A DNA stretch of 64,000 nt from Escherichia coli (lineage in GTDB: Bacteria > Pseudomonadota > Gammaproteobacteria > Enterobacterales > Enterobacteriaceae). Every line of letters starts with the position of its first letter. The first letter of the stretch is position 1. Position numbers and translations under genes: made by a program. The notes under the pieces were generated by a model, which was not told where the DNA came from, made no database searches, and worked only from the letters and a program-made list of their open reading frames with translations. This document shows, one piece after another, positions 2,224-11,501 of the stretch. Location of the stretch: NCBI RefSeq assembly GCF_046105845.1, contig NZ_CP151004.1; one strand, given 5' to 3'.

Positions 2224-3912
2224 ATGAGTGGTGAAAAAAAGGCGAAAGGCTGGCGGTTCTATGGTCTTGTAGGTTTGGGCGCAATAGTACTGCTTTCCGC
2301 TGGCGTCTGGGCGTTGCAATATGCTGGCAGTGGGCCAGAAAAAACGTTGTCGCCGCTGGTGGTGCACAACAATCTGCAAATCGATCTCAATGAGCCGGAC
2401 CTCTTTCTCGACAGCGACTCTCTGAGCCAGCTTCCCAAAGATCTCCTTACCATTCCGTTTCTCCACGATGTTCTGAGTGAAGATTTCGTTTTCTATTATC
2501 AGAATCATGCCGATCGTCTGGGCATTGAAGGCAGCATTCGCCGCATTGTCTATGAACACGATCTCACGCTGAAAGATAAGCTCTTTTCGTCACTCTTAGA
2601 TCAGCCCGCGCAGGCGGCGCTATGGCACGATAAACAAGGCCATCTTTCACATTACATGGTGCTGATCCAGCGCAGTGGTTTAAGCAAACTGCTGGAGCCA
2701 TTGTTGTTTGCCGCTACCAGCGACAGCCAGTTAAGCAAAACGGAAATCAGTAGTATTAAGCTAAATAGTGAAACCATCCCGGTTTATCAGTTGCGCTATA
2801 ACGGCAATAACGCCCTGATGTTCGCGACTTATCAGGACAAGATGCTGGTGTTTTCCAGTACGGATATGCTGTTTAAAGATGACCAGCAGGATACCGAAGC
2901 CACGGCGATCGCAAGTGATTTGTTGAGCGGTAAAAAACGCTGGCAAGCCAGCTTTGGCCTGGAAGAGCGTACTGCCGAAAAAACGCCAGTACGCCAGCGC
3001 ATCGTGGTCAGCGCCAGGTTGCTGGGGTTTGGCTACCAGCGATTAATGCCTTCTTTTGCTGGCGTACGCTTCGAAATGAGCAACGACGGCTGGCATAGCT
3101 TTGTGGCGTTAAATGATGAATCCGCCAGCGTAGATGCCAGTTTCGATTTTACGCCGGTATGGAACAGTATGCCTGCCGGGGCCAGCTTCTGTGTGGCGGT
3201 GCCGTATTCGCATGGTATTGCCGAAGAGATGCTTTCGCACATCAGCCAGGAAAACGACAAGCTGAACGGGGCGTTAGATGGTGCAGCCGGGCTGTGCTGG
3301 TATGAAGACTCAAAATTACAAACCCCGCTATTTGTTGGTCAATTTGATGGCTCAGCCGAACAGGCACAACTGCCTGGGAAACTGTTTACGCAAAATATTG
3401 GTGCGCACGAAAGCAAAGCGCCAGAAGGTGTTTTGCCGGTAAGCCAGACTCAGCAGGGCGAAGCGCAAATCTGGCGTCGCGAAGTGAGTTCCCGATACGG
3501 CCAGTATCCGAAAGCGCAGGCGGCGCAACCAGATCAATTAATGTCGGATTATTTTTTCCGCGTGTCGCTGGCGATGCAAAACAAAACGCTGCTTTTCTCC
3601 CTCGATGACACGCTGGTTAATAACGCGCTGCAAACACTGAATAAAACCCGCCCGGCAATGGTGGATGTGATACCCACTGATGGCATCGTTCCGCTCTATA
3701 TCAATCCACAAGGCGTGGCGAAACTGCTGCGTAACGAAACGCTGACCAGTCTGCCGAAGAATCTCGAACCGGTTTTTTATAACGCCGCACAAACTTTATT
3801 AATGCCGAAGCTGGACGCTTTATCTCAACAACCTCGTTATGTCATGAAGCTGGCCCAGATGGAACCCGATGCCGCCTGGCAGTGGCTACCCATAACCTGG
3901 CAGCCGCTATGA
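2224..3912 (+). CDS. yfaA: DUF2138-family envelope protein with N-terminal membrane anchor (562 aa)
   Basis: ORF track 2182..3912; start moved to ATG 2224 ([14 protein letters not shown]...) to match remembered YfaA N-terminus; aagga RBS about 8 nt upstream; hydrophobic segment residues ~17-40. Confidence 0.85.
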
Positions 3913-4532
3913 GGCACGGGCTGCTGGCGCTGATTTGCTGGCTGTGTTGTGTTGTTGCCCATAGCGAAATGCTGAATGTCGAACAATCCGGGCTGTTTCG
4001 CGCCTGGTTTGTACGCATTGCACAGGAACAGCTCCGCCAGGGGCCAAGTCCGCGCTGGTATCAGCAGGATTGTGCGGGCCTGGTGCGATTTTCGGCGAAC
4101 GAGGCGCTGAAAATTCACGACAGCAAATGGCTAAAAAGTAACGGCATAGCAAGTCAGTATTTGCCGCCTGAAATGACGCTAACACCTGAACAGCGTCAAC
4201 TGGCGCAAAACTGGAATCAGGGGAACGGAAAAACCGGCCCCTATGTGACCGCGATTAATTTGATTCAATATAACAGCCAGTTCATTGGCCAGGACATAAA
4301 CCAGGCGCTGCCTGGCGATATGATTTTTTTCGATCAGGGCGATGCCCAGCACTTAATGGTCTGGATGGGGCGTTACGTCATCTACCACACCGGAAGCGCC
4401 ACGAAAACTGACAACGGAATGCGCGCAGTCAGTCTGCAACAACTTATGACATGGAAGGACACCCGATGGATACCCAACGATTCCAATCCCAATTTCATTG
4501 GCATTTATCGTTTAAATTTTCTGGCGCGATAG
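3909..4532 (+). CDS. yfaT: DUF1175-family secreted protein (207 aa); NlpC/P60-like Cys/His motifs
   Basis: ORF track 3882..4532; ATG at 3909 overlaps the yfaA stop (ATGA); signal-peptide-like N-terminus [19 protein letters not shown]; motifs DCAGLV and GDMIFF...QHLMVW. Confidence 0.8.
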
Positions 4533-10720: not shown

Positions 10721-10724
10721 TGCT

Positions 10725-11501
10725 ATGCGAAAGATTTTTCTTCCGTTGTTACTGGTGGCGCTTTCGCCTGTCGCTCACAGTGAAGGTGTGCAGGAAGTCG
10801 AGATTGATGCACCGCTCTCTGGCTGGCATCCGGCAGAGGGCGAAGATGCCAGTTTTTCACAATCGATCAATTACCCGGCGTCGTCCGTCAACATGGCAGA
10901 TGATCAAAATATCTCAGCGCAGATCCGCGGCAAAATAAAGAATTATGCTGCGGCGGGTAAAGTTCAGCAGGGCCGGCTGGTGGTCAACGGTGCCAGTATG
11001 CCGCAGAGAATTGAATCCGATGGTTCATTTGCACGCCCTTATATTTTCACTGAAGGCAGCAACAGCGTGCAGGTCATCAGCCCAGATGGGCAAAGCCGAC
11101 AAAAAATGCAGTTTTACTCGACGCCGGGCGCTGGAGTGATCCGCGCGCGTTTACGGCTGGTTCTCTCCTGGGATACGGACAATACCGACCTCGACCTTCA
11201 CGTTGTTACACCTGATGGCGAACACGCCTGGTACGGTAACACCGTGCTGAAAAACAGTGGTGCACTGGATATGGATGTCACGACGGGGTACGGCCCCGAG
11301 ATTTTCGCTATGCCAGCGCCGATTCACGGACGTTATCAGGTGTATATCAACTACTATGGCGGACGCAGCGAAACGGAATTGACGACCGCCCAACTGACGC
11401 TGATCACCGATGAAGGATCGGTCAATGAGAAACAGGAAACATTTATTGTACCGATGCGTAATGCTGGCGAGCTGACGCTGGTGAAAAGTTTTGACTGGTG
11501 A
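10725..11501 (+). CDS. yfaP: DUF2135-family secreted protein (258 aa)
   Basis: ATG 4 nt after the yfaQ stop; signal peptide MRKIFLPLLLVALSPVAHS; length matches YfaP. Confidence 0.85.
   Translation: MRKIFLPLLLVALSPVAHSEGVQEVEIDAPLSGWHPAEGEDASFSQSINYPASSVNMADDQNISAQIRGKIKNYAAAGKVQQGRLVVNGASMPQRIESDGSFARPYIFTEGSNSVQVISPDGQSRQKMQFYSTPGAGVIRARLRLVLSWDTDNTDLDLHVVTPDGEHAWYGNTVLKNSGALDMDVTTGYGPEIFAMPAPIHGRYQVYINYYGGRSETELTTAQLTLITDEGSVNEKQETFIVPMRNAGELTLVKSFDW

Follow-up and report, generated by a model that had tools for sequence, protein, structure and literature searches.

The intact yfaATSQP operon of Escherichia coli, an enterobacterial form of the Pseudomonas mag operon centred on an alpha-2-macroglobulin family protein

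Introduction

A group of five adjacent genes, yfaA-yfaT-yfaS-yfaQ-yfaP, is found at positions 2224–11501 of a 64,000 nt stretch of Escherichia coli DNA (contig NZ_CP151004.1), which is referred to here at its full length as the window. The gene yfaS encodes a protein of the alpha-2-macroglobulin (A2M) family. The operon has been catalogued, yet few conserved envelope systems of E. coli are understood as poorly, and its Pseudomonas aeruginosa counterpart, the mag operon, was tied to resistance to peptidoglycan-degrading type VI secretion system (T6SS) toxins only in 2025. The question raised by the locus is what the five products do together in the envelope, and where the translation of yfaS begins. 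An original prediction, made from the sequence alone, read the region as an intact, envelope-directed operon with an A2M protein at its core, and this reading is supported in its essentials here. The yfa system probably protects both cell wall and periplasm from incoming hydrolases.

Results and discussion

Gene content and relation to the mag operon

The five open reading frames are all on the + strand: yfaA (2224–3912, 562 aa), yfaT (3909–4532, 207 aa), yfaS (4451 or 4466, depending on the start codon, to 9070), yfaQ (9071–10720, 549 aa) and yfaP (10725–11501, 258 aa). The closest complete E. coli genome is 98.8% identical over positions 2000–11700, and RefSeq annotates its locus as yfaA (DUF2138), yfaT (DUF1175), an alpha-2-macroglobulin family protein, yfaQ and yfaP, which bears out the predicted set of five same-strand genes. 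By megablast with 2000–11700 as the query, the region is present in all but one of the 5426 complete E. coli genomes (5425). Query coverage is at least 80% in 5178 genomes and below 80% in 247 of the 5425. The region is yfaATSQP, a core operon of E. coli that was catalogued before; it is intact here and, as had been predicted, a known system.

The yfaA/yfaT junction is an ATGA overlap, the yfaS/yfaQ gap is zero (TAA-GTG), and yfaQ and yfaP are separated by 4 nt. The prediction that no overlap or gap exceeds 4 nt holds at these three junctions, but the yfaT/yfaS junction, which it omitted, is an overlap of 82 or 67 nt. YfaT was used as a probe with one genome per species, which gave 80 loci, and the five proteins were then compared by tblastn. 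Escherichia is represented among the loci by E. whittamii, E. albertii and Escherichia sp. E1V33, with no E. coli representative. The gene order is kept in the 80 loci, which come from Escherichia, Superficieibacter, Enterobacillus, Yersinia, Edaphovirga, Methylobacter and Pseudomonas. Because this order is common to 80 loci, the close packing of the genes is not by chance.

All 71 Pseudomonas loci and one Methylobacter locus show a YfaP-like gene followed by yfaA, yfaT, yfaS, yfaQ and a further YfaP-like gene, i.e. the magABCDEF order. The leading magA is missing from each of the nine Enterobacterales loci (Escherichia, Superficieibacter, Enterobacillus, Yersinia alsatica and Edaphovirga). 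Neither these nine loci nor the window, where gyrA lies directly upstream, contain a second YfaP-like gene. YfaP displays 50–58% identity to the last Pseudomonas gene (magF position) versus 37–43% to the first (magA). Since identity is higher to the last gene, YfaP is taken as the MagF orthologue, with MagA having no counterpart. This agrees with Robert-Genthon (2013, PMC3735191), where MagA and MagF are paralogues in a COG and size table.

YfaT residues 21–206 share approximately 75% identity (E-value = 9e-103) with the crystallized P. aeruginosa MagC (PDB 7bk8), and YfaS is 52–56% identical to its Pseudomonas counterparts at the MagD position. At the level of sequence, synteny and the YfaT/MagC identity confirm that yfaATSQP is the five-gene enterobacterial form of P. 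aeruginosa magBCDEF. That the operon is a counterpart of mag had been stated in the original prediction, and the Pfam domains, the MagC identity and the collinear B-C-D-E-F order in 71 Pseudomonas loci all agree with it. Synteny with the whole of magABCDEF is partial: B to F are collinear, but E. coli has five genes and not six, and the magA paralogue is absent.

In MagABCDEF (PA4492–PA4487), B-C-D-E-F correspond to yfaA-T-S-Q-P and belong to the same Pfam and COG families. Both systems have an A2M protein without the thioester Cys and, in the case of YfaS probably, without a lipobox, a single-pass membrane anchor (MagB or YfaA), and predicted signal peptides on the other products. As a separate observation, YfaT identity between Escherichia and Pseudomonas is 67–76%, far above that of its operon partners (37–58%), and its synonymous divergence is lower as well.

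YfaS domains and the thioester site

YfaS, the MagD orthologue, shows Pfam matches to MG2 (5.9e-19), A2M_BRD (4.1e-17), A2M (5.9e-12) and bMG10 (6.5e-6). These profile searches could have spoken against the predicted family and instead place YfaS within it. The position of the thioester motif GCxEQ is occupied in the alignment by GGVIN (residues 1068–1072; 7667–7681, +), and a CxEQ motif is absent throughout YfaS. Judged by its sequence, a thioester is impossible in this protein. Most Pseudomonas homologues show GGVEQ at this site, as published for MagD. YfaS has two Cys residues, one of them in the signal peptide, while MagD has none.

GCVEQ is kept in 11 of 78 syntenic YfaS/MagD homologues, at approximately residues 1032–1086. 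Methylobacter, P. delhiensis and P. citronellolis are among these (loci L009, L015, L026, L028, L029, L036, L042, L052, L056, L060 and L073 in our set). Because homologues in the same operon keep this motif, the published definition of type II A2M as lacking a thioester is not universal. From the alignment, loss of the thioester looks secondary, and YfaS looks like the most degenerate form.

A bait-like linker (residues 842–867; 6989–7066, +) would lie between the A2M_BRD and A2M Pfam matches. Its placement follows the domain order and the 91 and 74 kDa products seen when MagD is cut by TEV protease (PMC5764988), and is conditional on both. In the linker a short variable stretch precedes NRSERxVKxLERPRRE, which is strongly conserved. 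As read from the aligned sequences, such conservation is atypical for a broad-spectrum bait.

Type I bacterial A2Ms, e.g. E. coli YfhM (ECAM) with PbpC (PBP1C) and Salmonella Sa-A2M, are similarly periplasmic proteins of multiple MG domains with a bait region. Their gene adjoins that of a peptidoglycan-directed partner, and the N-terminal domain of YfaQ is modelled in the same fold class as the transpeptidase of a penicillin-binding protein (PBP). However, type I proteins have a CxEQ thioester, a lipobox and a pbpC neighbour, and YfaS has neither the thioester nor the neighbour and probably no lipobox. A phmmer search of YfaS against PDB did not retrieve ECAM or Sa-A2M at E < 0.01, the similarity being too low. 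Human alpha-2-macroglobulin, C3–C5 and CD109 share MG2, bait-region and A2M domains with YfaS, and there are weak direct PDB matches to C5 and CD109. YfaS differs from these in having no thioester and no receptor-binding domain match, and in being presumably monomeric and tethered to a membrane partner.

Intactness and selection

In the window yfaS is a single open frame, as predicted. The same 4605 nt frame is annotated as a pseudogene (b4500) in E. coli K-12 MG1655. The K-12 defect is one nonsense codon, W1368*, with no frameshift; the window has TGG at this codon (8567–8569, +) and no stop elsewhere in the frame. The two yfaS sequences differ by 158 nt (3.4%) and 28 aa. In the type strain of E. 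albertii, NBRC 107761, yfaA carries the nonsense codon Q345* (L004:9339–9341) and the other four genes are intact.

These two nonsense codons, the lost ATGA start of yfaS described below, the degenerate thioester site, a leader with no consensus promoter and the 247 of 5425 genomes that cover less than 80% of the region could all be taken as signs of a cryptic or decaying locus in Escherichia, i.e. a poorly expressed or silent remnant heading to pseudogenization. We consider decay highly improbable. When all five genes are compared with those of another E. coli and of E. whittamii, the Nei–Gojobori method gives a dN/dS of 0.01–0.16; the values are 0.02–0.11 against E. albertii (four intact genes) and 0.05–0.12 against Superficieibacter, at divergences up to a dS of about 2. 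By gene, yfaS gives 0.05–0.09 and yfaP 0.01–0.05. A value of 0.41 for yfaA against E. albertii was discarded, as the E. albertii copy carries the nonsense codon. Full-length frames are present in E. coli, E. whittamii and Superficieibacter, and the region is found in essentially every E. coli genome. By these ratios the operon is under strong purifying selection in the genus and is sporadically lost.

The translation start of yfaS

Four in-frame starts are available to yfaS. ATG 4451 gives 1539 aa and an 82 nt overlap with yfaT. ATG 4466 gives 1534 aa and a 67 nt overlap; it is preceded by AAGGA 6 nt upstream and is the start annotated in K-12. TTG 4541 is the third. The fourth, GTG 4556, is the start in the RefSeq PGAP model and gives 1504 aa and a 23 nt gap after yfaT. 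This last start cuts into the hydrophobic core of the signal peptide, and no signal peptide is left in such models (WP_182924664 type; L001 6557). Translation from ATG 4466 gives an N-terminus with two positive charges and a 21-residue uncharged core followed by ANA/DD.

In Pseudomonas, Yersinia and Edaphovirga an ATGA overlaps the yfaT/magC stop, and within Pseudomonas this holds for 68 of 71 loci. A classical signal peptide directly follows this coupled start, e.g. MNRLLAVALLALMPLAAHA, which fits the 26-residue signal peptide of MagD (PMC3735191). In Escherichia and Superficieibacter yfaT ends in TAG or TAA, and at the other loci in TGA. In the alignment across loci, the site of the ancestral coupled ATG is ATA in these two genera (in the window 4529–4531, +). 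Because the ancestral start has turned into ATA, an internal ATG would be used in Escherichia, and ATG 4466 is preferred because of the AAGGA, the N-terminus resembling a signal peptide and the K-12 annotation. Thus the start of yfaS in Escherichia is probably ATG 4466, and unlike that of magD it must lie 67 nt inside the preceding gene.

The predicted length of 1539 aa is accordingly most likely 1534 aa (4466–9070, +, with Pfam, synteny and the K-12 start as its basis), while the intact A2M frame stands. An export signal had been predicted for every product. Under a heuristic based on hydropathy and charge, those of YfaA, YfaT, YfaQ and YfaP have a classical appearance, and that of YfaS would be present with a start at 4451 or 4466 but absent with the PGAP start. 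The YfaA N-terminus shows a positive charge followed by a 27-residue uncharged stretch, and the AlphaFold2 model has a helix at 12–34. Constructs built on the RefSeq A2M model, which has no signal peptide, would mislocalize the protein.

Three other features near this start were considered and set aside. A lipobox in YfaS (I-A-A-C25) was rejected as unlikely; Escherichia sp. E1V33 has Tyr in place of this Cys, and other genera lack the segment or have a different one. A Tat signal from the DTRR of the upstream-frame extension was rejected as well; E. coli has TQRF, approximately 20 residues before the hydrophobic core. Conservation of the two upstream in-frame ATGs was not accepted as proof of a start, as they coincide with conserved Thr-Trp and Arg-Trp codons of YfaT, each ATG consisting of the last base of the Thr or Arg codon and the TG of the Trp codon; the use of rare codons, described next, carries the argument instead.

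A conserved rare-codon block and hairpin within yfaT

A 36 nt block inside yfaT (4440–4475, +; codons −30 to −19) is nucleotide-invariant in the 71 Pseudomonas and the Enterobacterales loci (80 loci). Read in the yfaS frame it provides GGAAGGA, 6 nt and ATG 4466. Third positions next to the block vary freely. Codon counts from the 71 distinct Pseudomonas loci show that the block is made of codons that are rare in the same gene: Thr is ACA in 68 of 68 (background 4%), Arg is CGA in 71 of 71 (background 2%), and Ile is ATA in 68 of 71 (background 0%). Gln is CAA in 71 of 71, a count for which the background was not computed. The same rare codons are found in the nine Enterobacterales loci. In Methylobacter, where yfaS begins 256 nt downstream, the block uses CGC and CAC instead.

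The block also forms the 5′ arm of a conserved mRNA hairpin (4453–4521, +, from the alignment), which pairs GGAAG and AUG 4466 with the last yfaT codons as the 3′ arm. Pairing holds in 97.4% of alignment cells versus 32–49% with slid partners, and there are two compensatory pairs. The hairpin shows z = −1.3 to −5.1 in Pseudomonas, Yersinia and Methylobacter (Methylobacter z = −3.2) and is significant in most lineages that keep the ATGA start. In the window (z = +0.26) it is no more stable than shuffled sequence, and in Superficieibacter z = 0.07; both are without the ATGA start. That the hairpin accounts for the rare codons was accepted only in part: neither the A of ACA nor that of ATA is paired, and CGG, though able to pair just as CGA does, never occurs. 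Since two of the positions are unpaired and CGG pairs equally, the hairpin cannot explain the exclusive use of A in ACA, CGA and ATA.

The block may serve yfaS/magD as a conserved internal region of translation initiation, and the hairpin, together with the ribosomes that translate yfaT, would control access to it. The internal and the ATGA-coupled start would give the same mature protein because both are upstream of the signal-peptide cleavage site. Escherichia would then have kept only the internal start. A CsrA/RsmA binding site, to which three GGA motifs within 22 nt would point, is a candidate instead of this or in addition to it.

A second candidate CsrA site is suggested at the yfaA leader, where a hairpin CACA-AGGAA-UGUG with GGA in its loop overlaps the yfaA Shine–Dalgarno (2208–2220, +). 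It is identical in E. whittamii, Escherichia sp. E1V33 and E. albertii. Pseudomonas magA leaders bear hairpins with GGA loops, and MagD synthesis is controlled by RsmA (PMC3735191).

Partner proteins of YfaS

YfaA, the MagB orthologue with an N-terminal membrane anchor, matches Pfam DUF2138 over its full length and is the only one of the five products with an NCBIfam family model. Its structural model (pLDDT 78, moderate) displays the N-terminal helix followed by repeated alpha/beta sandwiches, with weak matches of the Mog1/PsbP/DcrB/RseB kind and nothing stronger. YfaP, with a signal peptide, matches DUF2135 (3e-17).

YfaT, the MagC orthologue with a signal peptide, matches DUF1175 (4e-58) and weakly NLPC_P60 (0.0016). 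C55, H70, H148 and H160 are invariant in 81 sequences, C55 and H148 in the contexts D-C55-A-G-L-V and Q-H148-L-M-V. The papain-like fold, known from MagC 7bk8, and the Cys-His pair mark YfaT as an NlpC/P60-like protein. MagC binds peptidoglycan but is reported to be catalytically inactive, according to the statement cited in PMC10318531.

YfaQ, the MagE orthologue, also carries a signal peptide and is annotated merely as a tandem DUF2300 protein. Pfam gives two DUF2300 matches flanking a partial SpoIID match (1.7e-5, model positions 2–65 of 97), and BLASTP between the two DUF2300 halves gives no detectable similarity. A PDB sequence search with YfaA, YfaQ and YfaP finds no match, and the YfaQ family profile against PDB finds SpoIID alone, weakly. 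YfaQ models confidently as a beta-lactamase/PBP-like domain (24–245), a beta-rich linker and a SpoIID-like domain (323–549). A Foldseek search with the model gives beta-lactamases and PBP3 (E-value = 1e-6), and the order of secondary structure in 24–245 is that of the penicilloyl-serine transferase fold.

Invariant motifs of a catalytic type are situated within both domains. G59-S60-x-W62-K63 opens helix 59–72 (SxxK, 9245–9259, +), S108 is invariant, and K195-T196-W197 lies on strand 192–201 (KTW, 9650–9667, +). Residues 323–357 align with the SpoIID signature including Glu-Glu-Tyr (R323-E-E-Y326; REEY, 10037–10051, +), so that the SpoIID-like domain shows both the fold and the signature that carries the catalytic Glu. 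H520-E-Y-L-H524 (HExxH, 10628–10642, +), E536 and E540 are invariant as well. With OXA-10 numbering, which we take to be S67, S115 and K205, the spacing of S60, S108 and K195 (+48, +135) would presumably equal that of class D enzymes.

At the level of sequence YfaQ does not reach membership in these families. It matches no Pfam PBP or beta-lactamase family and thus has no profile membership with class D beta-lactamases, BlaR1/MecR1 sensors or PBP transpeptidases, from which it also differs in having KTW for KTG and a SpoIID-like fusion. Residues 323–549 score 18.7 bits against NCBIfam TIGR02669 (SpoIID_LytB), below the trusted score (cut-off 83.3). As compared with SpoIID/SleC lytic transglycosylases, only the N-terminal part of the domain matches at profile level, and YfaQ is Gram-negative, periplasmic, encoded in an A2M operon and provided with an extra invariant HExxH.

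Proposed function and alternatives

MagD of P. aeruginosa is a periplasmic protein that associates with the inner membrane, forms a complex with MagA, MagB and MagF, and is cleaved from 165 to 100 kDa (PMC3735191). It traps a bait-specific protease (TEV) non-covalently, and MagB anchors and stabilizes it (PMC5764988). MagC and MagE were not co-purified with MagD, and MagE appears to be cytoplasmic (PMC3735191, PMC5764988). A CRISPRi screen from 2025 shows that the mag operon protects P. aeruginosa from the peptidoglycan-targeting T6SS effectors VgrG3 and Tae1 (PMC12663445). The predicted view of the physiological role as unresolved is therefore partly outdated.

From the Pseudomonas work and the domains found in the yfa operon we infer a model of complex formation, trapping, interaction with peptidoglycan and defence in E. 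coli. All five products would be exported. YfaA would sit in the inner membrane by its one N-terminal helix, and would tether and stabilize YfaS. YfaS would serve as a trap of approximately 165 kDa with multiple MG domains, a bait-like linker and no thioester, and once cleaved or changed in conformation it would hold an attacking hydrolase non-covalently. YfaP, the MagF-like protein, would be an accessory subunit bound to YfaS, and YfaT, with its NlpC/P60 fold, and the MagE-like YfaQ may link the complex to peptidoglycan. Its targets would be incoming proteases and peptidoglycan-degrading enzymes, e.g. T6SS effectors or lysozyme-like enzymes. Such a guard would be a functional parallel to the type I pair of A2M (YfhM) and PBP1C.

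Several points weigh against a guard function in E. coli. A literature search by gene names and DUF numbers found no experiments on the E. coli proteins, and the functional steps are transferred from P. aeruginosa proteins that are 43–58% identical (YfaT approximately 75%). E. coli is without MagA, a direct partner of MagD in Pseudomonas. A cytoplasmic MagE that is not co-purified (PMC3735191, PMC5764988) fits badly with a periplasmic role for YfaQ, and MagC is described as catalytically inactive in the account given in PMC10318531. The thioester site of YfaS is more degenerate than that of MagD (GGVIN versus GGVEQ). The public PGAP model lacks the YfaS export signal, and the canonical start has been lost in Escherichia. 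No strong sigma-70 match is found in the approximately 70 nt 5′ of yfaA. The system is dispensable in culture, as K-12 is without YfaS and E. albertii has the yfaA nonsense codon.

The peptidoglycan-related folds of YfaQ and YfaT raise another reading, in which the system is not a protease inhibitor but surveys and repairs peptidoglycan. YfaQ, with a putative Ser-Lys acyl-enzyme site as in class D beta-lactamases and BlaR1 sensors, a SpoIID-like site for glycan strands and a putative HExxH metal site, would form with YfaT an enzymatic core that senses or remodels damage, and YfaS would serve chiefly as a scaffold or to trap peptidoglycan hydrolases. YfaQ could also act as a protease that processes YfaS/MagD from 165 to 100 kDa. 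The fold matches, the invariant motifs and their presumed class D spacing speak for this, as does the unusual conservation of the bait-like segment. Deletion of magE alters the MagD forms, and deletion of magC abolishes the 100 kDa form. Of the effectors against which MagD protects, VgrG3 is lysozyme-like and Tae1 an amidase/peptidase, and neither is a protease (PMC12663445). We nevertheless regard a surveillance machine in this full sense as unlikely. YfaQ has no sequence-level PBP or beta-lactamase membership, only DUF2300 and partial SpoIID in Pfam with the low SpoIID_LytB score, and its third motif is KTW and not KTG. HExxH is a short motif. MagE is reported as cytoplasmic and not stably bound to MagD, and MagD does trap a protease in vitro (PMC5764988).

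The first role proposed for bacterial A2Ms was against host proteases, and YfaS could in the same way be a colonization factor that neutralizes host proteases, e.g. neutrophil elastase, or antimicrobial peptides reaching the periplasm while gut or tissue is colonized. MagD changes conformation on binding human neutrophil elastase, strains without MagD show reduced virulence in a model of chronic infection, according to the literature as summarized in PMC5764988 (see also PMC3735191), and the operon is nearly universal in E. coli. But the operon is also present in Pseudomonas of soil, plants and water, in Methylobacter and in Edaphovirga, which are not animal colonizers. The sole clear loss-of-function phenotype so far concerns interbacterial T6SS attack (PMC12663445), and inhibition of host proteases leaves three peptidoglycan-related domains in the operon unexplained. 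A host-directed role is thus quite improbable, and a guard against incoming hydrolases is preferred.

A further, tentative reading joins two propositions. The first is that YfaQ/MagE is not a chaperone but a peptidoglycan enzyme or sensor, made up of a Ser-Lys domain of the class D beta-lactamase/BlaR1 type, a SpoIID-like domain and an HExxH site; the second is that the start of yfaS/magD is governed by the conserved region inside yfaT/magC. The internal start would be used alongside the ATGA start in Pseudomonas, and would have become the sole canonical start in Escherichia after the change of ATG to ATA and the weakening of the hairpin.

Flanking regions

The operon is situated between gyrA (72–2075, +) upstream and the convergent atoB (11575–12759, −) downstream. 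Two terminator-like hairpins 3′ of gyrA (approximately 2093–2116 and 2128–2152, +) were read from the sequence and are absent from the consensus-scan list. They set gyrA apart from the yfa operon and leave approximately 70 nt for a yfaA promoter. The consensus scan for promoters and terminators gave counts at or below the shuffle expectation and no credible signals internal to the operon. A bidirectional hairpin of the intrinsic-terminator type (11541–11562), CCCGATAACTTTCGCTATCGGG followed by TGTTTTTATTG on the + strand, has T-runs on both strands and is common to the operon and atoB, both of which it would end.

A scan of the whole window against Rfam at the gathering threshold gave no match within 2224–11501. 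Matches elsewhere in the window are MicF sRNA (25578–25671, −), naRNA4 (21841–21917, +), a tRNA (50553–50626, −) and an L25 ribosomal-protein leader (54342–54367, −), which are ordinary E. coli content. None of the five yfa products matches a PADLOC anti-phage defence profile.

Conclusions

The fold and motifs of YfaQ, the rare-codon block with its hairpin, the switch of the yfaS start and the relatives that keep a thioester motif are undescribed as far as the searched literature shows. The intact yfaS of the window, compared with the nonsense allele of K-12, makes K-12 the wrong background for functional work, and the K-12 allele may explain the absence of E. coli data. The fold assignment of YfaQ provides residues that can be mutated (S60, K63, E324 and H520/E521) to probe an action on peptidoglycan. 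If the tentative reading of YfaQ is true, both classes of bacterial A2M would be hard-wired to a glycan-active partner with a transpeptidase fold, PBP1C in type I and YfaQ in type II, and Mag/Yfa would be a machine for the surveillance of peptidoglycan damage.

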